Assembly: GCA_958295515.1 (NCBI GenBank)
Contig: CATQGW010000001.1
Location: forward strand, 580,923-644,922
Direction: 5' to 3'
From: an uncultured Dehalococcoidia bacterium
GTDB lineage: Bacteria; Chloroflexota; Dehalococcoidia; Bin125
DNA length: 64,000 nt
Part shown: piece by piece, positions 7,411 to 26,397 of the stretch
Layout: each line of letters opens with the position of its first letter
Numbering within the stretch: the first letter of the stretch is position 1
Notes under the pieces: model-generated
What the model was told of the DNA's origin: nothing
Seen by the model: only the letters and a program-made list of their open reading frames with translations
Databases searched by the model: none
Made by a program: the position numbers and the translations under genes

Positions 7411-8700
7411 TTACCTCGTCGCAACCAGCTCGCCGGCCTCTTCCATGGCCCCGCCCTCGCGGAAGACGGAGCGCAGCCGCGGCATCGCGCCCGCCCAGAG
7501 CAGCAGCGCAACCACGAAAATCACCCCCGGCACGGTGATCAGGACGCGCACCCCAATGAAGTCGGAGGCGAGGCCGTTGGCCAAAATCATCACCGCCATG
7601 ATCCCCCCGGCGACCATCGCGTAGATCGCAATGATCCGCCCACGAATCGCGTCCGGCACCACGGCCTGAATCATCACCGTCGTCAGCGCCATGAACATCG
7701 CCTGGCTGGCTCCGGCCAGCGCTGCGCCGGCGATCGCCACCCCCAGCGAGGGCGCCAGCCCCAAAATCGGCAGCACCGCCCCCGAGAGCAGCCCCGTGAT
7801 CAGCAACAGCCGCCCCCGAATCGGACCATCCGGCACCATCGACAGCGCCACCGTCGCCACCAGCGCCCCTCCGCCCACGCCCATCAGCAGAAAGCCGTAC
7901 TCCGATGAACCGCCGCCCAACTCAACCTTCGCGAACACCACCAGCATCGCATCGAAAGCCATCGTCAGCATGCACTGCAACGCCGCCAGGCCGATCAGCA
8001 GCAGCACCGAACGCGCCTGGCCGAGATACTGCAAACCCTCCCGCAGGTTCCTCACCGCGTCGGAGAGCACGCTCGCGTTGGTCCCCACGATGCCGCCAGT
8101 CGAGCGGGTCTTGATCCGACTCATCTGGACGATCGACAGCACGAGGAAGACGGCGGCGATCACGAACACCCACTTGGCCCCGTATTCGGCGAGGATCGGT
8201 CCCGCCACGGGGCCAATCACGCGCGAGCCGAACTGCATCATCGAGGCCAGCGTGATCGCGCTGAGCAGCGCCGCCGCCTTGATCGTGTTGGGCAGCAGCG
8301 CCGCCTGCGCCGGCATCTCCGCCGAGCGCACGATGCCGGAGCAGGCCGTGATCAGCACCAGGTTCCACAGCGTGATCGTCTCCGTGAAGGCCAGCGCGGC
8401 CAGCGCCAGCGCGCAGACCGCCGCCCCGCCGCGCGAGATCATCACCACCCGCGCCCGGTCGTAGCGATCCGCCAGCGCGCCGCCGATCGGGGCCAACACC
8501 CAGGGGCCAATCGCGGCGAAATAGACCAGCCCCACTGCCCAGCCGCTGTTCGTGAGCTCCCCGGCCAGCCAGCCGCGCGCTGTAATTAGTGCCCACAGCG
8601 AAACCGCCGACAACCCCGCCGCCCAGAACAGACGGCGATAATCACGCGACTCCATCGCCGGGAACAGGCGGCGCAGCGTGGTGGTTGAGCGTTCGGCCAT
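7411..8700 (-). CDS. MFS transporter
   Basis: 429 aa with ~12 predicted TM helices. MFS motif [11 protein letters not shown] after TM2. Paralog of the adjacent upstream gene. Confidence 0.8.
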   Translation of the reverse strand: MAERSTTTLRRLFPAMESRDYRRLFWAAGLSAVSLWALITARGWLAGELTNSGWAVGLVYFAAIGPWVLAPIGGALADRYDRARVVMISRGGAAVCALALAALAFTETITLWNLVLITACSGIVRSAEMPAQAALLPNTIKAAALLSAITLASMMQFGSRVIGPVAGPILAEYGAKWVFVIAAVFLVLSIVQMSRIKTRSTGGIVGTNASVLSDAVRNLREGLQYLGQARSVLLLIGLAALQCMLTMAFDAMLVVFAKVELGGGSSEYGFLLMGVGGGALVATVALSMVPDGPIRGRLLLITGLLSGAVLPILGLAPSLGVAIAGAALAGASQAMFMALTTVMIQAVVPDAIRGRIIAIYAMVAGGIMAVMILANGLASDFIGVRVLITVPGVIFVVALLLWAGAMPRLRSVFREGGAMEEAGELVATR

Positions 8701-8727: not shown

Positions 8728-10032
8728 TCAGTCTCCGCCCCCGGCCGGAGCGGCCGCAGGCACGACCTCTGTGATCTCCCCATGGCGCACGATCGAGCGA
8801 ATCCGCGGCAGCCCGATCAGGAACAGGATCATCACACCGACGAAGATGACCCCCGGCACAACCGCGAACAGCCGCAGGTCCACATAGTCCGCCGCCAGAC
8901 TGCTCACCAATGCGCTCACCGACATGACCCCGCCGGCGAACATCGCATAGAGGCTCATCACCCGCCCGCGGATCGAATCGGGCACAACAGCCTGCACCAT
9001 CACGCTGGAGAGCGCCATGAACATCGCTGTGCTCGCCCCGGTGATCGCGCCCGTGGCGATCGCCAGCGGGAGCGTGCTGGTCAAGCCGAAGAGCGTGAGC
9101 GCCACACCCGACGTGAGCCCCACCACGAGCAGGATCCGTCCCCGAATCGCCCCACGGGGCACGGCCGAAAGCAAGACCGTCGCCACCAGCGCCCCGCCTC
9201 CGAAGCCCATCAGCAAGTATCCGAACTCGGTCGAGCCGCCGCCCAGCACCCGATCCGCGTAGGCCGGCAGCAGCGTCAGGTCGAACGCCATCGTCAGCAT
9301 GCAGTGCAGCGCCACCAGCCCAATCGTCAGCCGCACCATCGGCGCGCGCCCCAGGTACTGCAACCCGTCTCGAATGTTGTCCGCCGTCTCGCGCCAGATA
9401 CTCACGCCCGGGCGAGCTTCAATCCCTCCCGTCGATCGCACCGTCATCCGCATCATCTGCACGACCGAGAGCACGAGGATGATCGCCGCCCCAACGAAGA
9501 CCCAGCCCGCGCCGAGCTCGCTCAGCACCGGGCCCGCGACCGGCCCGATCACCTTCGAGCCGAACTGCATCATCGAGGCCAGCGTGATCGCGCTGAGCAG
9601 CGCTGCCCCCTTCACCGTGTTGGGCAGCAACGCGGCCTGCGCCGGCATCTCGCCGGAGCGGATGATGCCCGAAAGCACCGTGATCAGCACGAGATTCCAG
9701 AGCGCAATCGCCCCCGTGAACGCGAGAATCCCGAGTGCCAGTGCGGTGCAGGCCGCGCCGAGCCGGCAGATCATCACCACCCGCGCGCGGTCGTAGCGGT
9801 CCGCCAGCGCCCCGCCTAACGGCGCAAGCACCCACGGGCCGATCGCCGCGAACGTCACCACCCCGCTTGCCGATGCGCTGCCCGTCAGGTCGTAGGCGAT
9901 CCAGCCCCGCGCCGTGATCAGCGCCCACAGCGAAATCGCCGACAGCCCCGCCGCGTAGAACAGCTTGCGGTACTCCGACGACTCCATCGCCGGAAACAGC
10001 CGCCGCATCGTGCCGTCCCTTGTGCTGGCCAT
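8728..10032 (-). CDS. MFS transporter (tandem paralog)
   Basis: 434 aa. N-terminus RRLFPAMES(S/R)(E/D)YR(K/R)LF and [16 protein letters not shown] are nearly identical to the 7411-8700 product. Same strand, 27-bp spacing. Confidence 0.8.
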
Positions 10033-10124
10033 TGCGGCAGCCTACGGCTTTTCGCTGCCCAACGTTTGCGCGCGATACCCTGCGGGCGGTGGACAGCGCC
10101 GATCACACTCCGAGGAGGGACGCC

Positions 10125-11801
10125 ATGGCAAGCGATCTGCGGCAACGAAGTTCTGTGCTGGTCGACGGGCCCAACCGCGCCGCGGCCCGCTCCCAACTGC
10201 ACTCCGTCGGCTTTATGCCCGAAGACCTGCGCCGCCCCCTGGTGATGGTCGCCCACTCCTGGATCGGCACGATGCCCTGCAACTTCTCACACCGCGAACT
10301 CGCGCAGGACGTGATGCAGGGCGTCCGCGAGGCCGGCGGCACCCCCATGGAAGTCAACACCGTCTCCATCTCCGACGGCATCACGATGGGCACCGAGGGC
10401 ATGAAAGCCTCGCTGATCTCGCGCGAGCTGATCACCGACTCGATCGAGCTCTGCGGCGTCGGCTACGCCTTCGACGCCGCCGTCGTGATCTGCGGCTGCG
10501 ACAAAACCATCCCCGCCGCCGCCATGGCCATGGCCCGGCTCAACATCCCCGCCGTCGCCCTCTACAGCGGCTCGATCGCCCCCGGACGCCACCACGACGG
10601 ACGCGACCTCACCATTCAGGACGTGTTCGAAGCCGTCGGCCAGCACGCCGCGGGCGCCATCGACGACGACGAGCTGGCCGCGATTGAGATGAACGCCTGC
10701 CCCGGCGCGGGCGCCTGCGGCGCGCAGTACACCGCCAACACCATGGCCACCGTGCTCGAATTCCTCGGCCTCTCCCCGATGGGCAGCGCCACCGTCGGCG
10801 CGACCGATTCCCGCAAAGGCGAGGTTGGGCGCGCCGCCGGCCGACTGGTCATGGATGTGCTCGAGCGCGGCGTCCGCCCGCGCGACCTGCTCACCAAAGA
10901 AGCCTTCGAAAACGGCATCGCCTGCGCCGCCTCCACTGGCGGCTCCACCAACGTCGTGCTCCACCTGCTCGCGCTCGCCCGCGAAGCCGGCATCGACCTC
11001 AGCATCGACGATTTCGACCGCGTCTCCGAAGCCACCCCGCTGATCGGCGACCTGCGCCCCGGCGGGCGCTACGTCGCGCTCGATATGGACCGCGCCGGCG
11101 GCACCCCCCTGCTCGCCAGCCGCCTGCTCGAACACGGCAAGCTGCACGGCGACCAAATGACCGTGACCGGCAAAACCATCGCCGAAGCCTGCGCCGACGC
11201 CGAAGAAACACCCGGCCAGGAGGTCATCCTCCCCGTGGAGCGAGCGCTCAAGGACACCGGCGGCCTCGTCATCCTCAAAGGTTCGCTCGCGCCCAACGGC
11301 TGCGTCGTCAAAGTCGCCGGCTACGAGCGCCAGCTACAGAGCGGCCCCGCCCGCGTCTTCGAGCGCGAGGAGGACGCCATGGCCGCCGTCACCGCCGGCC
11401 AGATCGTCGCCGGCGACATCGTCGTGATCCGCTACGAAGGCCCCCGAGGCGGCCCCGGCATGCGCGAAATGCTCGGCGTCACCGCTGCCCTCGTCGGCGC
11501 CGGACTCGGCGAAAGCGTCGCCCTGCTCACCGACGGACGCTTCTCCGGCGCCACCCGCGGCCTGATGGCTGGCCACGTCGCCCCCGAGGCCTACATCGGC
11601 GGCCCCATCGCCCTCGTCCAAGAGGGCGACCAAATCACCCTCGACATCAACAGCCGCCGCCTCGACCTCAACGTCGAAGAAGCCGAACTCGCCCAACGCC
11701 GCGCCGCCTGGAGCCCCCCCTCCCCCAACTACGACCACGGCGTCTTCGCCAAATACGCCCAACTGGTCACTGGCGCCGAACGCGGCGCCGTCACCAGCTG
11801 A
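10125..11801 (+). CDS. ilvD: dihydroxy-acid dehydratase (IlvD/Edd family)
   Basis: ATG at 10125 preceded by GAGGAGGGA RBS. Motifs [17 protein letters not shown] and [11 protein letters not shown], and the C-terminal domain, are typical of IlvD. Confidence 0.9.
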
Positions 11802-11835
11802 CGGCGATAGACTGGCCTCGCACGGGAGTCCCGCC

Positions 11836-13197
11836 ATGATGGACAGCATCACCCTCGAAAATTTCCGCTGCTTCCGCGAACGCCAAACCGCCAGGCTCGC
11901 CCCCCTGACCCTGCTAGTCGGCGAAAACAGCACCGGCAAAACCTCGTTCCTGGCGCTTATCCGAGCACTGGCAGCATTCGCATACACGCAACGCCCCCCC
12001 AACTTCAAGGAGCCGCCGTACGATTTGGGAAGCTTCGACGAAATCGCGCACTATCGCGGCGGCCGAGGTGGACGCGCTGAATCGTTCGAGGCGGCGTTCA
12101 CTGCGCGACAGCTTCGCCGCCGTCGGTCGCAATCGAAAGATTTCTACGAATTCGCCGTCACGTTCGCCGAACGCGGTACCGCGCCTGCTCCGGTCCGCCG
12201 GCGCATAGCTGTAGGCGACGCTTGGGTCGAGGACGCACTGGATGCCGTAAGCGGTTACTCAGTTCGGTTTGGGACCAAAAGAGGCGCATGGGTGGCGACC
12301 GACTCCAATGATCTGCGAACGCCGATCGATCTCGGTGAGCAGATGTACATGTACCTTGCTCTCGATCGGGCGTTGGACCTGGTACCTCTCGACTCACATA
12401 ACCAAGACAGCATCGAGATCAAGCCTGTCGACGGATCGCCAGCGATGAATAGCGACGATCTGACACTACTAGAGCCGATCAGATCATACATTATCCGGTT
12501 GGTTGGTCCCCGACCGTTCGCGAGCGCACCTGTGCGTTCCAAACCGGAACGTACTTATAACCCTGCGCGTCTTGACCGTGACCCTGATGGTGACTATGTG
12601 CCGATGTACCTCGCGGACCTCCGGTGGCAACAGAAAGAAGCATGGGACACGCTGAAGAGCCGCATTGACGAGTTCGGCCGTACAGCTGGCCTCTTCGACG
12701 AACTCTCTATACGCCCGCTGGGAACCAAAGCAAGCGAGCCTTTCCAGGTCCAAGTACGGAAGGGCGACGGAAGCTTGAAAGGCCCTCGTCGCAATCTGCT
12801 GGACGTTGGCTATGGTGTGAGTCAGGTACTGCCTATAGTGACAGAGCTGCTTCGGCCGGACGCCGCAGATCAACACCTGCTCCAACAACCAGAGGTCCAC
12901 CTCCACCCCAGCGCTCAAGCCGCCTTGGGCACGTTGTTCTGCCAAGTCGCCGCCTCCGGTCGGCAACTCATCGTCGAAACGCACAGCGATCACCTGATCG
13001 ACCGCGTGCGGATGGACGTGCGGGACAGAACCACCAGCCTCAAACCCGAAGATGTCTCGCTGCTCTACTTCGAGCGAACCGGCTTGGACGTCTGCATCCA
13101 CTCCCTCCGCTTCGACAAACTGGGCAACGTCCTCAACGCCCCGCCGGGCTATCGCCAGTTCTTCCTCAAAGAGGTCAACAGATCATTGGGCCTCTGA
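11836..13197 (+). CDS. ABC/OLD-type AAA ATPase (AAA_21-like with DUF3696-like C-terminal tail)
   Basis: Walker A GENSTGKTS near the N-terminus. C-terminal ABC-ATPase D-loop/H-loop QLIVETHSDHLIDR. ~60-aa C-terminal extension. Lower GC than flanking genes. Confidence 0.75.
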   Translation: MMDSITLENFRCFRERQTARLAPLTLLVGENSTGKTSFLALIRALAAFAYTQRPPNFKEPPYDLGSFDEIAHYRGGRGGRAESFEAAFTARQLRRRRSQSKDFYEFAVTFAERGTAPAPVRRRIAVGDAWVEDALDAVSGYSVRFGTKRGAWVATDSNDLRTPIDLGEQMYMYLALDRALDLVPLDSHNQDSIEIKPVDGSPAMNSDDLTLLEPIRSYIIRLVGPRPFASAPVRSKPERTYNPARLDRDPDGDYVPMYLADLRWQQKEAWDTLKSRIDEFGRTAGLFDELSIRPLGTKASEPFQVQVRKGDGSLKGPRRNLLDVGYGVSQVLPIVTELLRPDAADQHLLQQPEVHLHPSAQAALGTLFCQVAASGRQLIVETHSDHLIDRVRMDVRDRTTSLKPEDVSLLYFERTGLDVCIHSLRFDKLGNVLNAPPGYRQFFLKEVNRSLGL

Positions 13198-13200
13198 CGA

Positions 13201-13686
13201 ATGTGCGCCATCGTAGACGCCGATAGTTCGGGAGAGATTGCCGCTGTGAACCCGTCAGCTGGCGCTCAAGCGTTCAAAGAGTGGATTGCAGGTGGTCAGT
13301 GTTGCTTGGTCATCGGCGGCAGCCGCCTGCGAAAAGAGCTTGGACGCGGCTTCACCGATCCCGAGCGTGCGAAGCAGACGACCGTCACGGAATGGATTTC
13401 GGGAGTTGCGCTCGCCGGGAAGCTGATCAGCGAAGATGACGCCGAGGTCGACGCCCGCGCTGATCAGATCGAGCAATCGGGATTGTGCGCGTCGAACGAC
13501 TTTCACATCATCGCGCTCGCTCAGGTCGCCGGCGCGCGGATGCTGTATTCCAGAGATGCAGAGTTGCATCAGGACTTCACGAATACCGCGCTTCTGTCCC
13601 AACCTTCCGGCAAGGTGTATCCACGAAACTTGAGCCTGTCGGCGAGCAAGCAGTGGCTCGCCCGCAATCGCAGGTTCTACAGCTGA
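13201..13686 (+). CDS. PIN-like domain protein (putative nuclease partner of the ATPase)
   Basis: 161 aa starting 4 bp after the ATPase stop. N-terminal AIVDADS (β1 with acidic residue). C-terminal SNDFHIIALAQVAGARMLYSRDAELHQDF resembles the PIN/VapC D-x-iaA-A-…-T-D-DF signature. Confidence 0.5.
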   Translation: MCAIVDADSSGEIAAVNPSAGAQAFKEWIAGGQCCLVIGGSRLRKELGRGFTDPERAKQTTVTEWISGVALAGKLISEDDAEVDARADQIEQSGLCASNDFHIIALAQVAGARMLYSRDAELHQDFTNTALLSQPSGKVYPRNLSLSASKQWLARNRRFYS

Positions 13687-15080
13687 CCGTCGCCGCCTAA
13701 CACCTCCGGACGCATCCGGCACCAATCCGTCGACTGCTCATACGCATGCGCCACCCGACACACCGTCGCCTCGTCGAAATGCCGACCACCGATCATCAAC
13801 CCAATCGGCAGACCATTCCGATCAAACCCGCACGGAATCGAAATCGCCGGAATCCCCGTCACATCATACGGAGCCGTCAGACGCGCCAACTCCGCGTCAT
13901 CGTCCCCCTCCTCGATCGTCGGCGCAGTGCGCGATGTCGTCGGCGACACCAACACATCCACCGTTTGCAGCACCTCCACCGTCTCATCGATGAACAGCCG
14001 ACGCAGCCGCTGATCATTGATGTAGTCCACCGCCGTCACCGCCAGCCCCGCCTCCACGCGCGGCAGAATATCGCCGTACTCCTCGCGCCGCTCACGCAGC
14101 CACTTCGCGTGATACGCCGCCGCCTCCGCGATAATCGTCATCCCCCGCCCGCGATCCGTCTGCAGCGGCAGCTCCACCTCCACGATCTCCGCACCCAGCC
14201 GCCGCAAATGATCCAGCGCCTCCTCGCAGTGCGACAGCACATCCTCCTCGCAGTTCTTCCACAGCATCTTGCGCGGAACCCCAACCCGCACGCCCTCAAC
14301 GCCTTCGCCCAGCATCCCCGTCGTATCGTCCACCGCCCGGTCCGCCGAGCCCGGATCGTGCGGATCGTAACCCGCGATCGTGTCCAGAAACAGCGCCGCA
14401 TCCTCCACCGTCCGCGCCAGCGGCCCCACGTGATCCAGCGTCCATGACAGCGGCAGCACCCCCGCCCGCGACACCCGCCCGTACGTTCCCATCAACCCCA
14501 CCACACCGCACAGCGACGCGGGAATCCGAATACTCCCGCCCGTATCGCTGCCAATCGCCCCCAGCGCCGAACCCACCGCCACCGCCGCCCCGCTGCCCCC
14601 GCTCGAACCGCCCGGCGAGCGCTCCGTATCCCACGGATTGCATACTGCCCCATAGTGCGGATTACGGCTCGTCGTGCCGAACGCAAACTCATGCAAGTTC
14701 AGCTTGCCCGGCAGCACCGCGCCCGCCTCTTGCAACTTCGTCCACACCGTCGCATCCCGCTCCGGCACCCGCTCGCGCAGAAATCCCGAACCCCCCGTCG
14801 TCGCGATCCCCGCCGTATCCACCAAGTCCTTCAGCCCAATCGGAATCCCGTGCAGCGGCCCTCGCTCGCGTCCATCGCGCAGCTCCTCATCCAGCCGCGC
14901 CGCCTGCTCCCGCGCCAACTCCGCCGTCACCGTGATGTAGGCGTTGAGCAGCGGCTCCGTCTCCTCCAGACGCTCCAGCACCGACTCCGTCAGCGCCGCG
15001 CAGGTCAGTGCGCCGCCCCGCAGCGCCGCACCCGCCTCCGCAATCGTCAGATCGTGCGGATGCCGTTCAAGCTCAGTCAT
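13677..15080 (-). CDS. amidase (amidase-signature family, GatA-like)
   Basis: GGSSGGSGAAVA amidase signature and a Ser-cisSer-Lys context. Start chosen at MTELERH (cat at 15078-15080). Confidence 0.85.
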   Translation of the reverse strand: MTELERHPHDLTIAEAGAALRGGALTCAALTESVLERLEETEPLLNAYITVTAELAREQAARLDEELRDGRERGPLHGIPIGLKDLVDTAGIATTGGSGFLRERVPERDATVWTKLQEAGAVLPGKLNLHEFAFGTTSRNPHYGAVCNPWDTERSPGGSSGGSGAAVAVGSALGAIGSDTGGSIRIPASLCGVVGLMGTYGRVSRAGVLPLSWTLDHVGPLARTVEDAALFLDTIAGYDPHDPGSADRAVDDTTGMLGEGVEGVRVGVPRKMLWKNCEEDVLSHCEEALDHLRRLGAEIVEVELPLQTDRGRGMTIIAEAAAYHAKWLRERREEYGDILPRVEAGLAVTAVDYINDQRLRRLFIDETVEVLQTVDVLVSPTTSRTAPTIEEGDDDAELARLTAPYDVTGIPAISIPCGFDRNGLPIGLMIGGRHFDEATVCRVAHAYEQSTDWCRMRPEVLGGDGQL

Positions 15081-18238: not shown

Positions 18239-20236
18239 ATGACTCACCCTCCGCAATGGCGATTCCGTAAAATGTCACCCGCCGAGATCAACCAGGATCC
18301 GGTGCAGGGAGAGTTCTTCACCTCCACGTCTGATCTCGCTGAGCGCCTTGTCCGAGAGTCGATACAAAACTCGCTCGACGCTGCTCTCGGCGATGGTCCG
18401 GTCCGAGTTCGGTTCGCCTTCAGCGGTGCGGAACAGGCTTTGCCCGCTGAGCAAGCCGCACGCTACCTCGATGGCTTGAAGGCGCATCTCGAGGCAGTCG
18501 CGTTGTCGGATGCCGACAAGCCGTCAGTAGATGTCGATCACGAAGACGCTGCGGTTTATGACGCCTACGACTTGGTCGACCAACGGGTGCCAATGACCTA
18601 TTTGGTCGTCGAAGACTTGGGAACAAAGGGACTGACCGGCGACATCAGGAGCAACACCGAGTTCGAGAAAGGAAACCGCTTTTGGGGGTTCTTCCGCAGT
18701 GTCGGCATCTCACCCAACGTCGGCGGGACAGGCGGCTCGTGGGGCCTCGGCAAGTGGGTCTTCCCCGATGTCTCGCAGATCAATGCCTATCTCGGCATCA
18801 CCCGCCGTTCGGATGAGCAACGTGACCTGCTCATGGGCATGGCGATCCTCAAGACGCACCAAATCGACAACAAGAAGTACCCTCCCTACGGTCAGTTCGC
18901 GATTCGCTCTGATGAACAGGACGCCCGCTGGCTTCCATTGCCGATCGACTCCGACGAGGATCCTGACAACATCCTCGACACTGCGATCGACGATTTCCGC
19001 CTCCAGCGGCGCGACAGCTCTGGACTCTCAGTGGTCATCCCTTGGCCAAAAGAAGAACTGAACGCCAACGCGACCGTTCGCGCTGTATTGACGCAGTACT
19101 TCCTGCCGATTGTGTACGGCGATCTTGAAGTCGAGGTCGTCGCCGACGGCGAGACACAGCGAGTTAATCGTGAGTCAATCGTCGATGCGGCGCTCTGTAT
19201 CGACATATCGGAGCGCGACGACGAGTCTGCTCAGTCTTTGGTCAAAGCGATCGACCTTGCGTGCTGGGCAAGAGGTGAGGACGAGGAATCGCTGATTGAC
19301 GTCAAAGCCACGACGAGCCGCGACATTCTGGCAGGACAGGACATCGAATCACTGAGAGAACGCTTCGATCGCGGCGACCGTCTCGGTTTTCGCTTGTCGA
19401 CGAACGTGACTGACCGGAAGACAGGCGAGCCCGTAGTCAACACTTTCCGCGTCTATGTCGAGCAGGACGAGGATTTGACCCACGGCCACGACTATTTCGT
19501 GCGCGGCTACCTCCGCATACCTCACATGGATCACATCGGCTCGTTCCGCGCGCGAGCACTCGTGCTGGTTGATCGAGAGTCGAAGCTGGGCGATCTGCTG
19601 CGGGATGCCGAAGGTCCGGCTCACGTCTCGTGGGATCCTCACGCCGAGCGTCTCAAGAAGCGTTGGATCGGTGGATACGAACGTGTCCAGCAAGTTCGTC
19701 GCGCTGCTCTGCTGTTGCTCGGACCGCTCGCCGAAGTGCCGCGTGAGCGCCTCAAAAACCTACTCGCCGACCTCTTTCCCGCACCGTTGGGCGGAGGCGG
19801 CAATGGCCCACACCCGCCACCACCGCCGCCACCACCGCCACCACCGCCACCTGTAGTCAATCCCATCTCCATCAGTGAACTGAAGGATGGGTTTCGTATA
19901 CGCTCTGATTCGTCGAACCCTGCATCGCAGGCACTCGCTGGCACGAGTTGGCGTGTCGCGTTCGCGTACGATGTAGCGCGCGGCGGGCAGCGTGCCGCTT
20001 TCAACAGCTTTCGACAGGGCGTGAAGCAGGGCTCGCCCGACTTCAGCCTTTTCCGAGGCGCGCTCAGTATCACGTGTGAGGGATGCCTATACAAGATCAG
20101 GTCGGAGAACGAAATTGAGATCACAGTCACGAGGAACGACTTCCATCTCGGCGTACGCGGTCTTGATGCACGGGACGTGATCGTTGACCTACACCAACGA
20201 TCCGACGACGACGACACAGAGGATGATGAAGAATGA
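18239..20236 (+). CDS. GHKL (Bergerat-fold, HATPase_c/MORC-like) ATPase with C-terminal domain and poly-proline linker
   Basis: N-box ESIQNSLDAA, G1 box VEDLGTKGLTGD, G2-like GGTGGSWGLGKW. 665 aa. 13-Pro run. Acidic C-terminus. Lower GC than neighbours. First gene of a 3-gene overlapping operon. Confidence 0.7.
   Translation: MTHPPQWRFRKMSPAEINQDPVQGEFFTSTSDLAERLVRESIQNSLDAALGDGPVRVRFAFSGAEQALPAEQAARYLDGLKAHLEAVALSDADKPSVDVDHEDAAVYDAYDLVDQRVPMTYLVVEDLGTKGLTGDIRSNTEFEKGNRFWGFFRSVGISPNVGGTGGSWGLGKWVFPDVSQINAYLGITRRSDEQRDLLMGMAILKTHQIDNKKYPPYGQFAIRSDEQDARWLPLPIDSDEDPDNILDTAIDDFRLQRRDSSGLSVVIPWPKEELNANATVRAVLTQYFLPIVYGDLEVEVVADGETQRVNRESIVDAALCIDISERDDESAQSLVKAIDLACWARGEDEESLIDVKATTSRDILAGQDIESLRERFDRGDRLGFRLSTNVTDRKTGEPVVNTFRVYVEQDEDLTHGHDYFVRGYLRIPHMDHIGSFRARALVLVDRESKLGDLLRDAEGPAHVSWDPHAERLKKRWIGGYERVQQVRRAALLLLGPLAEVPRERLKNLLADLFPAPLGGGGNGPHPPPPPPPPPPPPPVVNPISISELKDGFRIRSDSSNPASQALAGTSWRVAFAYDVARGGQRAAFNSFRQGVKQGSPDFSLFRGALSITCEGCLYKIRSENEIEITVTRNDFHLGVRGLDARDVIVDLHQRSDDDDTEDDEE
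19814..19852 (+). repeat. CCR trinucleotide (poly-proline-encoding) tract inside GHKL ATPase gene
   Basis: 13 consecutive Pro codons (ccg/cca alternating, final cct), encoding HPPPPPPPPPPPPP between the two halves of the GHKL protein. Confidence 0.8.
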
Positions 20237-21033
20237 TCCGTCGATTTAACCGCACGGGCCGTAGGACGATTGCGCGTCAGCATGCTCAGGTCACACTGCG
20301 CAAACTGAACCCCGAGCAGACTTACTTTGAAATCGCGCTTGATTTGAATTCCTATGGTTTTCCGAAGGACGCGAAGGTTCGCGTCGAAGCTTGGCGTTCG
20401 AATGCCGTACAGCGCTGGGAATTCGGGATCGTTGACGACATCAACCCGCCGACGCGAGGCAATCGCGTCCTGCGCGACGTGCCTGAGACCGCCGCATTCC
20501 GCGTTGCCATTGTGGCGCCAGACGATTCGGGTTTGCTGTTCGGCTTGAGTGGCGACCTTCGTCCACGGCGAGAACTGACCAACGACGGCTCAGAGCCGAT
20601 AGCCGAATCGCTGCTTCACGTCGAGATCGCTAGCGATCTCGGGCAAGAGGTGTGGCGTCTCGATTTCGGAGACGACGAGCTGCCGGTGCTCCAGCTCAAT
20701 GGCTCAATCTCGGGCATCGCGCAGATTGTGGAGCACGACCCGACGTTTCGGTCCCTCGTCATTCCGGAGATTTTCAGAAGCATCTTGCAGCGAGCAATTC
20801 TCGTTACCCGGATCGACCCAGATGATCCTGACTCGAACGCTTGGACCGACTGGCTTGCTTTGGCTAAGAAGCAAGCCCCAAAGGCAGATGTGCCCACACT
20901 GACAGATTTGGCGGACACCGGCGAGCGAGACGCGGCCTTTTCATGGATCGAGATGGTGGTTGGCCGATTCGCGGCTCAAAGGGGCTTTGATGCTGCCACG
21001 ACGTACAGTAAGGCTATGGAGGCAGGGCGATGA
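20233..21033 (+). CDS. hypothetical protein (operon partner 2 of GHKL ATPase)
   Basis: 266-aa ORF. ATG overlaps the upstream stop (ATGA). No motif recognised by eye. Confidence 0.6.
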   Translation: MIRRFNRTGRRTIARQHAQVTLRKLNPEQTYFEIALDLNSYGFPKDAKVRVEAWRSNAVQRWEFGIVDDINPPTRGNRVLRDVPETAAFRVAIVAPDDSGLLFGLSGDLRPRRELTNDGSEPIAESLLHVEIASDLGQEVWRLDFGDDELPVLQLNGSISGIAQIVEHDPTFRSLVIPEIFRSILQRAILVTRIDPDDPDSNAWTDWLALAKKQAPKADVPTLTDLADTGERDAAFSWIEMVVGRFAAQRGFDAATTYSKAMEAGR

Positions 21034-21746
21034 CATACGCCAGAGCACTTACGACAGACGGCATTCGACGAGCTCAGGAGTTCGTCAGGGCGTTGGGCAG
21101 TGACCCGGCCATGCCGCTCACCCCGCCGGATGACATTCTGTTCGATGCTCGATACTCGCGGGAGATCGAGCGAGCACCGAGAGTCGAACATCGCAGTTTC
21201 ACCACACGACGCGAAGCTGCCGAATACTTGGTTTCTCTTTCGCCCCCTCTCGATCAGCGCTCCGTAGATGACTGGCCATTTTGGTCGTGGTTGGGCCTGT
21301 GGCACCTGCCGGACATATTGCACACCGATGAGCGGCGCACTCGCATGTCGAGCGAAGAAGAGACGTTCGTTGTCGACCGAATGGACGGCCGGTCGCGACA
21401 AAGCAGGTACCGGAACTACCTGTGGACATCGTGGCGTCTTTACCAAGCGTTCGGCGAAGAGGCAGCATATCTCCTCGATCTCGACATCATGGAGATCGGA
21501 CAAATCACGCGACGAATCATTAACTCGCCGCGAATCTTCAACTCCGTTGGTGTCGTTCAACTAATTCTACGGCTCTATACGCGGGAGAAAAGGGCGAAGC
21601 GCGGCCGCAGAAACCGCCCTGGTGGGCTGGATCACCTCTTTCGCGTCCTCCCACAGCTCGAACTGACGCACGATGTCTATGGCATGTCGCCCGACGCGCT
21701 GCTGCGCATCTTGCCACCAGAGATCCAAAAGTGGGATGAGCGCTGA
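21030..21746 (+). CDS. hypothetical protein (operon partner 3 of GHKL ATPase)
   Basis: 238-aa ORF. ATG overlaps the upstream stop (ATGA). Basic C-terminal region (REKRAKRGRRNRPGG). Confidence 0.6.
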   Translation: MTYARALTTDGIRRAQEFVRALGSDPAMPLTPPDDILFDARYSREIERAPRVEHRSFTTRREAAEYLVSLSPPLDQRSVDDWPFWSWLGLWHLPDILHTDERRTRMSSEEETFVVDRMDGRSRQSRYRNYLWTSWRLYQAFGEEAAYLLDLDIMEIGQITRRIINSPRIFNSVGVVQLILRLYTREKRAKRGRRNRPGGLDHLFRVLPQLELTHDVYGMSPDALLRILPPEIQKWDER

Positions 21747-24111: not shown

Positions 24112-26397
24112 GTGAAGAACGCGCCAAAGCCCGAAAATCTGTCGCTGCAGAGCCTGCTCTCGCGCCTCAGCGAGGGACGCTTCGTGATCCCCGACTTCCA
24201 GCGGGAATTCGAGTGGGAGCCCAAAGACATCCTCGAGCTGATGCGCTCCCTCTTCCTCGATTACTACATCGGAAGCTTGCTCCTCTGGCGCGGGCGCAAC
24301 GAGACGTTCGCGGCGCTGGCGTGTAAGCCGCTCGCGGTCTTCGCCGGCGACAACGGAGGCAGTCCGGAGCACATCGTGCTTGACGGGCAGCAGCGCCTCT
24401 CGGCGATGTACTACGCATTCATGGCGCCGTCGGTCCCCGCACCAAACCGGAAGGTCCGGTACTTGTACTTCATCCGCATCGATAAATGGGCGGACGACGA
24501 ACCTGACGAGGCTTTCGTCTACGACTGGACGCGCCGTGGCACAAACCTACTCGACGATCGCGAAGAGCAATTTGCCCGTCAGATGCTCCCACTCGCAACG
24601 ATCGGCAATGCCGGTCGGCGTGGGGTTTGGGACTGGTTCCGCGATTACGAGACATTCTGGGAGGAGAAGCGTGGCGCTGCCGATTCGACAGGTCGCACAG
24701 CAGAGCGCGGTCAAGCTCAGCGGTGCATCGAGCAAGGTAGCGAGTTTGCCGATCACCTTGATGAGATGCTGCGCGAATACCAAATCTCCTACATTGAGCT
24801 TGATCAAGAGCTCGAGATCGATAAGGTCTGCGACACCTTCACACGGATCAACAGCCGCGGCATCCGACTCGACATATTCGACCTGATGAACGCTCTCCTG
24901 CGACCGAAAGACCTCCGACTCAAGGACATGTGGCGAGAGGTTGCGCCTGATCTGGAGTTCATCAGCTCAAGTCGGTCCGATGTCTACGTACTGCAGGTGA
25001 TGTCGATCCTCGCGCAGAACTACTGCTCACCGAAGTACCTGTACCATCTCCTCCCCGGCGAGAAGCGCCGCATTCGCAAGCCGGATGGATCCAGCGCCGA
25101 TCAAGTGCTGGTGCCCGATGCCGAAGACTTTGAGCGCCGTTGGTTGGAAGCCGTGGCGATCATCAAGAGCGGCGTCGCGCGGCTGAGCCATCCTCAAGAC
25201 TTCGGAGCGATCTCCTCAGCCCTCCTCCCGTACGCCTCGATCCTCCCAGCGTTTTGCTCGGTGCTGCACATCGCAAATTCTGCGCCCGACGCTGAGCGAC
25301 TCACGGCTGCACGCAAGGTTCGCGATTGGTACTGGGCGAGCGTGTTCACGAATCGATACTCCGGGGCGGTTGAGTCCACGGCGGCGCGCGATGTCCTTGA
25401 CGTAAGGCAATGGATCAACAACGACGATGCCGTACCAGATGTGATCGCTGCACTTCCCGAACGCATGCGGACACTGGACCTACGAAGCGAAACGCGCCCT
25501 GCGGCATCGGTGTATAAAGGAGTGCTCAACCTGATCATTATGAACGGCGCCCGCGATTGGGCGTCCGACGCGCCACCGCAGCCGGACGACATCGATTCCT
25601 ATCACATCATTCCCAAGTCGTGGGGAAGAGCGAATCGTCTCGGCAAACGGATCGACACCGTTCTGAACCGCGTTCCCCTGTCCTCGGAAACCAATCGGGA
25701 CATCATCGGCAAGCAGCTCCCAAATCAGTACCTACGCGAGTGGATCGACAGAACAGGAGAAGCGTCCGTCCGCGAGACGCTGCGAACTCATCTGATCTCG
25801 GACACGGCATTCGACATTCTGTGCCGCGACCCGTTCGAGAAAGACGACTTCGAAGCATTTCTGTCGGAACGTCAACGAACCATCCAACAGGCGATTGAAG
25901 TGCTGTTGATCAAGGGGCGGCTCGATCTGACTCCGGACCTGAGGGAAATGGATAGGCGCGTTGAGGTCGTTGAGCTCGAACTGCGAAAGCTTGTTGTGGC
26001 TACTCTCAACAGCGACTCACAAAGAGTGCCTCAGAGCGTGCGCGTGAAATGGCAGCCGCGAATCGAAACGATCAAGCGCAAGCAGCCAGGACTCGCAGCC
26101 GACGCATTCGACACCCTGCGAGTGCAGCTGGAGTACGCCGACCTGAGCGAGCTTGGCGAGATCATTCTCAACAAGGCGCTGTGGCTAGACTTCCAACCGG
26201 TGTTCAACGCGAAGCCGCTCGTGCAGAGCCGCTTCGCACAGCTCGGCGAGCTGCGCAATGCGATCCGCCACACCCGCACCGTGACGCCCGTCGTCCAAAA
26301 AGACGGCGAAGCGGCACTGCTGTGGTTCGACCAGGCGCTGGGCATGGCGGGGCTTCGGAGGTCGGACGGAGAGATTCCCGCTCGGGGGCGGGAATGA
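24112..26397 (+). CDS. DUF262 (ParB-like NTPase) + DUF1524 (HNH-like) protein, GmrSD/SspE-like type IV restriction-type enzyme
   Basis: N-terminal IPDFQREFEWE and DGQQRLSAMY (DUF262 hallmark). C-terminal …DDIDSYHIIPKSW… (His-Me/DUF1524-like). 761 aa. Reduced GC. GTG start. Confidence 0.8.
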   Translation: MKNAPKPENLSLQSLLSRLSEGRFVIPDFQREFEWEPKDILELMRSLFLDYYIGSLLLWRGRNETFAALACKPLAVFAGDNGGSPEHIVLDGQQRLSAMYYAFMAPSVPAPNRKVRYLYFIRIDKWADDEPDEAFVYDWTRRGTNLLDDREEQFARQMLPLATIGNAGRRGVWDWFRDYETFWEEKRGAADSTGRTAERGQAQRCIEQGSEFADHLDEMLREYQISYIELDQELEIDKVCDTFTRINSRGIRLDIFDLMNALLRPKDLRLKDMWREVAPDLEFISSSRSDVYVLQVMSILAQNYCSPKYLYHLLPGEKRRIRKPDGSSADQVLVPDAEDFERRWLEAVAIIKSGVARLSHPQDFGAISSALLPYASILPAFCSVLHIANSAPDAERLTAARKVRDWYWASVFTNRYSGAVESTAARDVLDVRQWINNDDAVPDVIAALPERMRTLDLRSETRPAASVYKGVLNLIIMNGARDWASDAPPQPDDIDSYHIIPKSWGRANRLGKRIDTVLNRVPLSSETNRDIIGKQLPNQYLREWIDRTGEASVRETLRTHLISDTAFDILCRDPFEKDDFEAFLSERQRTIQQAIEVLLIKGRLDLTPDLREMDRRVEVVELELRKLVVATLNSDSQRVPQSVRVKWQPRIETIKRKQPGLAADAFDTLRVQLEYADLSELGEIILNKALWLDFQPVFNAKPLVQSRFAQLGELRNAIRHTRTVTPVVQKDGEAALLWFDQALGMAGLRRSDGEIPARGRE

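Follow-up and report, generated by a model that had tools for sequence, protein, structure and literature searches.

The stretch of 64,000 nucleotides (nt) from a Dehalococcoidia contig (CATQGW010000001.1) that we have analysed, to which we refer in its full length as "the window", contains two adjacent, co-directional genes on the forward strand: gene 1 (11836..13197) encodes an ATP-binding cassette (ABC) ATPase of 453 amino acids (aa), and gene 2 (13201..13686) encodes a free-standing, VapC-like PIN-domain protein of 161 aa. Both open reading frames (ORFs), taken from the ORF list of the window, are located where an earlier reading of the same DNA (the original prediction) had placed them; the spacer between them, given there as 4 bp, is 3 nt long (13198..13200, + strand), with the sequence running TGA CGA ATG from the stop codon of gene 1 through the spacer to the start codon of gene 2, and it makes translational coupling of the two genes probable. 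By comparing the pair with homologous loci that were fetched for this purpose (designated by L-numbers), we have found a recurrent ATPase-nuclease pair that is probably a conflict or defence module of the type of HEC-03, i.e. Hma-embedded candidate 3, which consists of an ABC ATPase and a VapC-like PIN (Payne et al., bioRxiv 10.1101/2024.01.29.577857).

The pair differs from its surroundings in composition: the GC content is 0.56-0.61 over 11.8-13.8 kb, versus ~0.68-0.72 on both sides, and amounts to 59.6% for the pair versus 68.3% for its flanks, so that the lower GC content noted in the original prediction is confirmed and the islet is compositionally foreign. The gene that is located upstream encodes an ilvD-type dehydratase, while the gene on the other side encodes an amidase, is convergent with the pair and overlaps the PIN gene by 10 nt with its 3' end; the same two neighbours had been named earlier, and the Pfam families ILVD_EDD and Amidase are matched in the homologous flanks of L001-L004. 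Matches to promoter and terminator consensus sequences are no more numerous than in shuffled sequence, Rfam has matched nothing in positions 11000-14500 of the window, the search for flanking direct or inverted repeats has returned nothing beyond short chance matches, and no empty insertion site has been found.

The same pair recurs in 82 of the 83 fetched loci, the commonest gap between the ATPase and the PIN across related loci being 3 nt, and because of this recurrence we regard both ORFs as real genes and not as chance ORFs. In the wider survey, the ATPase alignment was scanned against one genome per species, and at least 549 relatives were returned; the best 80 loci, i.e. those most similar to the query ATPase, have been kept. 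The pairing is obligate: a PIN-family ORF is located downstream, on the same strand, in 79 of the 80 genome loci, the sole exception being L005, where the PIN starts normally (MCAIIDANVAHEVFG...) and is then interrupted by a deletion after 17 codons; starting from the PIN side, an ATPase of 439-465 aa is located directly upstream in all four further relatives (28-44% identity). A conserved third gene is absent, as the all-against-all clustering of the neighbours gave lineage-specific synteny only, and the nearest upstream and downstream genes belong, by Pfam, mainly to metabolic families. Decayed or shortened PINs are seen beside intact ATPases in three loci: in L005 (7369-8013) the remnant is fused to a MaoC-like ORF, and in L014 (7466-7834) and L055 (7345-7707) the ORFs are reduced to 122 aa and 120 aa, respectively; the sampling is anchored on the ATPase and is hence biased with respect to the order of gene loss.

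The product of gene 1 is matched by the Pfam families AAA_15 (3.7e-21) and AAA_21 (8.7e-16), in line with the profile search that had been suggested for it; the match to DUF3696 (E 0.0016 at aa 402-438) is below the cut-off, and the DUF3696-like tail that had been proposed is thereby recovered as a weak Pfam match in the window copy, with PF12476 (DUF3696) matches being precomputed for several close homologues. Among the PADLOC profiles, the best match is NsnB (1.2e-46, aa 1-439), the ATPase of the system Menshen, followed by PDC-M55A (1.3e-31) and the HEC-03 ATPase model (1e-27), and by weak matches to AriA, PtuA and GajA. The NCBIfam profiles give short P-loop matches only (PtuA, MAD3, RecF), all far below their cut-offs, and PHROGs gives one unnamed family at the C-terminus only. 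The AlphaFold2 (AF2) model (mean predicted local distance difference test score, pLDDT, 79.4; predicted template modelling score, pTM, 0.83) has the heads of Rad50/SMC and PtuA (the Septu/retron ATPase) as its top Foldseek matches, and is therefore that of an ABC ATPase without a coiled coil. On the strength of these comparisons, the protein belongs to the DUF3696 branch, together with NsnB, PDC-M55A and the HEC-03 ATPase. Of the earlier label "ABC/OLD-type", the first half stands, supported by the profiles, the motifs and the fold, while the second half is loose, as no Toprim domain or Toprim partner has been matched at the pair.

The sequence motifs of the ATPase, the invariance of which has been scored among 30 homologues, are all located on the + strand, and those that the original prediction had quoted are found at the positions given here. 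The Walker A motif or P-loop, GENSTGKTS (aa 29-37, 11920..11946), has G29, E30, N31, S32, G34, K35, T36 and S37 invariant; the equivalent of the ABC signature motif, the GxG variant GYGVSQ (12808..12825), has G325, Y326, G327, S329 and Q330 invariant and aligns with the signature region of OLD 6p74; the H-loop, ETHSDH (aa 381-386, 12976..12993), has E381, T382, H383, S384 and D385 invariant. The Walker B motif is degenerate: LLQQPE (aa 348-353, 12877..12894), in which L348, L349, Q350, Q351, P352 and E353 are all invariant, is aligned by HMMER to IIEEPE of the class 2 OLD 6p74 and to LIEEPE of GajA, and the acidic pair is therefore replaced by Gln-Gln, the corresponding position in HEC-03 and its relatives being occupied by EQ. 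Hence, of the elements by which an ABC ATPase is recognised, the Walker A motif, the signature motif, the H-loop and the fold are present, but the acidic pair (D/E-E) of the Walker B motif, which coordinates Mg2+ and serves catalysis, is missing.

Two further elements of the ATPase deserve mention. The alignment of the homologues has revealed the conserved motif ASAPVRSKPxRTYxPxxxxxDPxGDYxPMY (aa 229-257, 12520..12606), where A231, P232, R234, K236, P237, R239, T240, Y241, P243, D249, G252, Y254, P256 and M257 are invariant and where R234 stands at the place of the ABC Q-loop; a counterpart of the form GPxRxxPxRxY is seen in HEC-03 and in DUF3696 ATPases of Rhodococcus and Bacillus. Although aa 229-257 rank among the most conserved stretches of the protein, the pLDDT of aa 237-253 is below 50, and the segment might form a flexible loop with a role in regulation or interaction. 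The C-terminal DUF3696-like tail (aa 402-453, 13039..13194), whose Pfam match is sub-threshold, is a candidate for the site where, as we infer, the PIN docks. A GxG signature, a Q motif replaced by Arg and a degenerate Walker B have all been described for NsnB (PMC12065111).

The hypervariable insert of the ATPase (aa 81-227, 12076..12516, + strand) has been delimited by a drop in identity and by a blastn gap against L003. Over ~80 loci, the mean pairwise identity is 73% for aa 2-80, 23% for aa 81-227 and 69% for aa 228-452 of the ATPase, and 47% for the PIN. The comparison of the window with L003 is particularly informative: the flanks have 97.5-98.4% DNA identity and the PIN 97%, but the ATPase only 61%, and positions 12078-12514 of the window, i.e. 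ATPase aa ~81-227, have no blastn match whatever in L003. In five genomes, the PIN has an identity of at least 90% to that of the window, and between strains with such PINs the identity of the insert is 18-28% (18-26% to the window's insert, for the three ATPases that were retrieved). The insert is predicted by AF2 to be β-rich, with strands at aa 83-156, and in position it is the counterpart of Insert-1 of ABC ATPases; Payne et al. (bioRxiv 10.1101/2024.01.29.577857) have suggested that inserts of this kind determine the specificity of ABC-ATPase defences. We propose that aa 81-227 constitute the sensor module of the ATPase, and the replacement of alleles of this segment between near-identical strains, as read from the alignments, looks like receptor diversification. 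The window also contains two tandem paralogues of an MFS-type transporter (7411-8700 and 8728-10032, - strand; ~73% DNA identity, as judged by their cross-matches with L003), of which L003 likewise has two copies and L001 and L002 one each; L003 contains an extra gene for a 363-aa HSDR_N_2 protein (9072-10163) between its ECH and CoA-transferase genes that is absent from the window (~16233).

The product of gene 2 is matched only weakly by the PIN family of Pfam: the window copy reaches 20.8 bits (E 6e-4) against Pfam PIN, below the gathering cut-off of 23.6, whereas 51 of 71 relatives match the same family at E<=0.01, with 2.8e-9 as the best value. The window PIN has no match in PADLOC or PHROGs and only a far-sub-threshold match in NCBIfam (PseF); the PADLOC search that had been suggested has thus matched the ATPase, with NsnB as the best profile, and left the PIN unmatched. 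Since the profile of the PIN family has no match among the PDB sequences either, the fold had to be obtained from structure prediction, which gives a confident, VapC-like PIN α/β fold; gene 2, for which a PIN domain had been anticipated, is accordingly predicted to fold as a nuclease domain, with its acidic site intact (D6, E46, D100, D119 and D125). A profile search of 1.84 billion representatives has returned 1540 relatives (912 at E<=1e-10), nearly all of them stand-alone proteins of 140-170 aa, and some of them named "PIN domain-containing protein" by NCBI; at the pair loci, the PINs are uniformly 150-165 aa long, with no effector stub.

The conservation of the PIN has been followed in an alignment of 71 diverse members (A2) and in a second set of 79 full-length copies from the fetched loci. 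In the former, D6, E46, D100, H102, D125 and F126 show no variation, and D119 hardly any. In the latter, the catalytic Asp D6 at the end of strand β1 (13216..13218, + strand, as are the codons that follow) is present in 77 of 77 non-gap copies, the catalytic Glu E46 (13336..13338) in 79 of 79, the catalytic Asp D100 of the SNDxHIIALA motif (13498..13500) in 78 of 79, and the acidic residues of the LYSxDxxLxxDF motif (13555..13575) in 78 of 79 for D119 and 79 of 79 for D125. The canonical acidic positions of PIN domains (D, E, D, D) are therefore all conserved, and both stretches by which the domain had been recognised in the original prediction, IVDAD (aa 4-8) and NDFHIIALAQ...LYSRD...DF (aa 99-126), are found in place. 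Judged by these residues, the product of gene 2 is a VapC-like PIN nuclease that looks catalytically competent. The family also has a pattern of Cys and His residues, comprising C2 (76 of 77), C96 (53 of 79), H150 (61 of 79) and a C-terminal Cys, which might be a metal site; the window PIN has K150, a Lys at this position being common to its clade, and Tyr160 (codon 13678-13680) where nearly all relatives have Cys, the terminal Cys being kept in a relative that is 97% identical to it (P0001).

The pair is horizontally acquired. Its GC content is lower than that of the flanks in 78 of 78 loci, with a mean difference of 7.8 points, and its genomic position differs between lineages; the ilvD-amidase site of the window is shared by relatives whose PINs are 69-97% identical to the window's, and L004, from a Dehalococcoidia metagenome-assembled genome (MAG), has the synteny of the window. 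The host MAGs span about 15 phyla or classes, across which the ATPases are 51-60% identical, and are labelled Dehalococcoidia, Caldilineaceae, Latescibacterota, Entotheonella, Binatia, Dadabacteria, Gemmatimonadetes, Synechococcus, Spongiisociaceae, Porisulfidus, Nitrospirales, Vicinamibacterales, Opitutales, Rhodothermales, Spirochaetia, Alpha- and Gammaproteobacteria and Thermodesulfobacteriota. Names typical of sponge symbionts are frequent among them; an enrichment in the sponge habitat is a lead and not a result, given that the 80 loci are those nearest to the query.

Defence contexts of the pair exist, in a minority of the loci. In six of the 80 loci, the pair is located between the genes of DUF1156 and DUF499. 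A Bacteroidetes MAG has the gene order SNF2/NOV_C helicase, DUF1156, ATPase, PIN, DUF8426, DUF499; in L090 and L091, the pair is accompanied by DUF1156, DUF499 and the SNF2/NOV_C helicase, a composition of DUF1156, DUF499 and SNF2 that we take to be that of Hma (helicase-methylase-ATPase) loci. In three loci (L094-L096), an N6_Mtase/Eco57I-type gene adjoins the pair. The window copy itself is not located between DUF1156 and DUF499.

The window contains two other low-GC islets, which we also count towards the defence context of the pair. In the second (about 0.58-0.61; 18239-21746, + strand), there are three co-directional ORFs (665, 266 and 238 aa) that overlap, without a Pfam match for any of them; the 665-aa ORF is matched by the PADLOC candidate PDC-M33A (7.4e-14), and genes of similar size are located at the same site in L001 and L002, where the third gene carries DUF6339. 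The third islet (24112-26397, + strand) lies 11 kb downstream of the pair. Its product, a protein of 761 aa, is assigned to GmrSD_N/DUF262 by Pfam (1e-29), contains a DGQQR motif, resembles HNH in its C-terminal region, is matched in PADLOC by PDC-M55C (1.1e-26), HEC-05 (4e-22) and NsnA (5.9e-9), and is probably a stand-alone, GmrSD-type restriction enzyme. We have considered whether this PDC-M55C-like gene is a partner of the PDC-M55A-like ATPase, and we have rejected this candidate, as the association does not recur in the 83 loci.

The design of the pair and its context lead us to favour, with somewhat better than even confidence, the view that it is a conflict or defence module of the HEC-03 type, and the defence logic of an ATPase with a nuclease, as set out in the original prediction, remains the best reading of the pair. 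The individual steps of the mechanism that we propose are each held less firmly than this overall reading. The ATPase would oligomerise through its ABC heads and would hold the PIN inactive on its C-terminal DUF3696 tails, a step that is modelled on the predicted NsnB4-NsnC2 complex and on the solved PtuA-PtuB and AriA-AriB complexes. The insert (aa 81-227) would recognise a phage-derived trigger, the binding of which would alter the ATP-bound state of the ATPase; the PIN would then be released or unmasked and would cut RNA (tRNA, rRNA or mRNA), arresting the infected cell. Because the Walker B motif reads QQ, the ATPase would probably act as an ATP-binding switch rather than as a fast hydrolase. 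A bolder version of this scheme, which we put forward only tentatively, is that of a module with a polymorphic receptor, shared horizontally within one host-associated community (apparently that of marine sponges), in which a hydrolysis-dead ATPase with a swappable cassette gates a VapC-like RNase, and which represents the "active PIN" ancestor of the inactive PIN domains (inPINs) of NsnC, the third component of Menshen.

Several observations weigh against assigning the pair to defence of the HEC-03 type. The PADLOC model of the HEC-03 ATPase, PDLC04148, scores 1e-27 with the window ATPase, versus 5e-231 with the prototype and 4.5e-110 with a relative from Rhodococcus; the model of the HEC-03 PIN, PDLC04147, is matched by none of the 71 PINs of the window family at E<=1, while it scores 9e-86 with the prototype PIN and 1.9e-24 with the PIN of the Rhodococcus plasmid relative, and hhalign aligns the two PIN families over 38 columns, in the motif D..hhA.A...D only, with a probability of 19.7%. 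As both the ATPase and the PIN fall short of the HEC-03 models, PADLOC 2.0 would not call the pair; none of the 71 members of the PIN family has matched any PADLOC PIN model. Most immediate neighbours of the pair are housekeeping genes, and the window locus is syntenic in relatives (with PINs 69-97% identical) without mobility genes, so that classical defence-island support is modest. In tblastn searches against plasmids, the PIN has no match and the matches of the ATPase are at most 35% identical; against phages, the PIN again has no match and the ATPase has partial, distant matches only; and an ATPase-based pattern scan of IMG/VR has found nothing. The fold search of BFVD has likewise returned nothing at E<=1e-3, and we have rejected carriage of the pair by mobile elements, since the plasmid, phage, IMG/VR and BFVD searches have yielded no close relatives. 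The QQ of the Walker B motif could mean that the ATPase has no motor activity whatever, and Tyr160 might leave the window copy of the PIN impaired. Lastly, we infer the defence role from design and context. The original prediction would have been refuted by an absence of homologous pairs from mobile or defence contexts; such pairs are present in the defence contexts described above (DUF1156/DUF499 and N6_Mtase/Eco57I).

The most serious rival is a selfish toxin-antitoxin or addiction cassette, in which the PIN would be the toxin and the ATPase its neutraliser, with no dedicated antiphage role. The PIN indeed resembles VapC and has kept its acidic site, the gene upstream adjoins the toxin gene in the manner of vapBC, the pair stands alone among housekeeping genes at many sites without mobility genes, HEC-03 is toxic on induction, and the decayed copies (L005, L014 and L055) have lost the PIN and kept the ATPase, which is the safe order of loss, albeit in a sample that is biased by its anchoring on the ATPase. 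However, an ATPase of 453 aa with a hypervariable insert exceeds what the masking of a toxin needs, the exchange of alleles of aa 81-227 from one strain to a near-identical one resembles the diversification of a receptor, the pair is found repeatedly inside DUF1156/DUF499 systems and adjacent to restriction-modification genes, and phage defence by HEC-03 needs both genes; we therefore consider a purely selfish cassette unlikely, while still giving it a real share of the probability. Many toxin-antitoxin systems act as abortive-infection systems, and for this reason the two readings are not mutually exclusive.

Two other explanations are very improbable in our view. The pair could be a decayed Menshen system (NsnABC) in which NsnA is gone and NsnC is without its C-terminal effector domain: NsnB is the best PADLOC match of the ATPase over its full length (1.2e-46), the ATPase has the NsnB-type GxG signature and Q-loop Arg, the N-terminal, PIN-like domain of NsnC is predicted to dock on the tails of NsnB, and a DUF262 protein is encoded 11 kb downstream in the window. 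This explanation is largely refuted by the jackhmmer search with the DUF262 domain, which has found no DUF262 ORF within ±6 kb of the pair in the 83 loci, so that the two-gene form is a stable state and not a remnant; moreover, the PIN retains all of its catalytic residues, unlike the inPIN families of Menshen, its uniform length of 150-165 aa leaves no stub of an effector, and the DUF262 protein of the window is probably a stand-alone, GmrSD-like enzyme of 761 aa. The pair could also be a housekeeping pair for RNA processing or DNA repair, i.e. a Rad50/SMC-like ATPase with a PIN/FEN-like nuclease, which would agree with the nearest folds of the ATPase (Rad50/SMC heads), with the very high conservation of its N- and C-terminal parts and with the ilvD-amidase synteny across relatives with PINs 69-97% identical. 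Such a role is hardly compatible with a GC content below that of the flanks in 78 of 78 loci, a genomic position that is different in each lineage, the existence of truncated copies, the hypervariable insert, the degenerate Walker B and the lack of a coiled coil and of an Mre11-like partner; the nearest profile matches of the ATPase are all defence ATPases, and its identification as a housekeeping ABC component, which would have undone the original prediction, is not what we have found.

With the defence module as the favoured reading, the pair adds a large family, which is present in many phyla and comprises no fewer than 1540 PIN representatives and over 7800 ATPase clusters, to a small set of systems that combine an ABC ATPase with a PIN, and because the current PADLOC PIN models miss this family, it is undercounted in the defence inventories of these mostly uncultured bacteria. 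The identity of 23% in the insert versus ~70% in the scaffold, together with the replacement of alleles, amounts to a natural experiment on the specificity of ABC-ATPase sensors. The invariant QQ of the Walker B motif bears on the question, raised for HEC, of whether the binding or the hydrolysis of ATP is important, and an active PIN on a DUF3696 ATPase offers a possible evolutionary origin for the inactive PIN docking domain of Menshen.

Among the known systems, Menshen (NsnA-NsnB-NsnC; Millman 2022; Li et al. NAR 2025, PMC12065111) has the most similar ATPase: apart from the PADLOC match, the AAA_15 domain with the DUF3696 tail, GYGVSQ, R234 and LLQQPE are found as in the NsnB variants, and NsnC begins with a PIN-fold domain that, in AlphaFold3 models, is sandwiched by two NsnB tails (PMC12065111). 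The differences are located in the partners: no NsnA (ParB-DUF262) gene occurs in the 83 loci, the upstream gene in the window being ilvD, and the partner of the window ATPase is a PIN alone with its D-E-D-D site intact, whereas in NsnC the PIN is inactive and has an effector (BECR, Toprim or PLD) fused to it, all Menshen inPIN families being without catalytic residues (PMC12065111). For these two reasons, i.e. the absence of NsnA and an active PIN without a fused effector, the pair is not a member of Menshen. In PARIS (AriA-AriB), Septu (PtuA-PtuB) and Gabija (GajA-GajB), as in the proposed scheme, infection is sensed by an oligomeric ABC ATPase, which in turn controls a nuclease, and the ATPase model is structurally similar to PtuA; the nuclease of the window is, however, a PIN and not a Toprim or HNH protein, and its ATPase has a DUF3696 tail. 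With respect to OLD, Gabija and PARIS, the pair also differs in that no Toprim domain or partner is matched, while with respect to the type II toxin-antitoxin system VapBC, it has a 453-aa ABC ATPase in place of the small DNA-binding VapB.

The closest design is that of HEC-03. Its prototype, from Pseudomonas cichorii ATCC 10857 (WP_025259138.1 and WP_025259137.1), consists of a 461-aa "DUF3696 domain-containing protein" followed by a 157-aa PIN protein; both genes are needed for phage defence, the system is toxic on induction, and the HEC candidates were found embedded in Hma loci (bioRxiv 10.1101/2024.01.29.577857). The existence of this two-gene system, a DUF3696 ABC ATPase with a VapC-like PIN, overturns the earlier statement that a free-standing PIN partner is not among the named ones. 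PADLOC-DB 2.0.0 names the PIN (PDLC04147) "HEC-03A" and the ATPase (PDLC04148) "HEC-03B", which is the reverse of the preprint text. A true HEC-03 pair is located on the conjugative plasmid NZ_CP069307.1 of Rhodococcus aetherivorans (L085 3194-5085; ATPase 4.5e-110, PIN 1.9e-24), and the plasmid CP093425.1 of Bacillus pacificus (L084 3944-6405) carries a DUF3696 ATPase with a 352-aa PDC-M55B-like protein beside AbiG, no annotated DUF262 gene being present within 4 kb on the Bacillus plasmids; DUF3696 pairs that lack NsnA therefore appear to occur with different effectors.

The window pair shares with HEC-03 the arrangement of two adjacent, co-directional genes for a DUF3696-type ATPase and a PIN (461 and 157 aa there, 453 and 161 aa here), an identity of 30% over 199 aa to the prototype ATPase (E 5e-20) and the loss of the catalytic Glu of the Walker B motif (EQ in HEC-03, QQ here); the location of some of its relatives between DUF1156 and DUF499 next to a helicase may be a further resemblance, to the embedding of HEC candidates in Hma loci. 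It differs in that the HEC-03 ATPase model ranks third for the window ATPase, behind NsnB and PDC-M55A, and in the Walker B QQ, the hypervariable insert and the conserved Cys/His pattern of the PIN that characterise the window family. Taken together, these comparisons indicate that the pair has the same design as HEC-03 but belongs to a separate sequence family in the DUF3696 ATPase clade; the design of an ATPase with a free-standing PIN is already known from HEC-03, while the separate sequence family is new and previously unmodelled.

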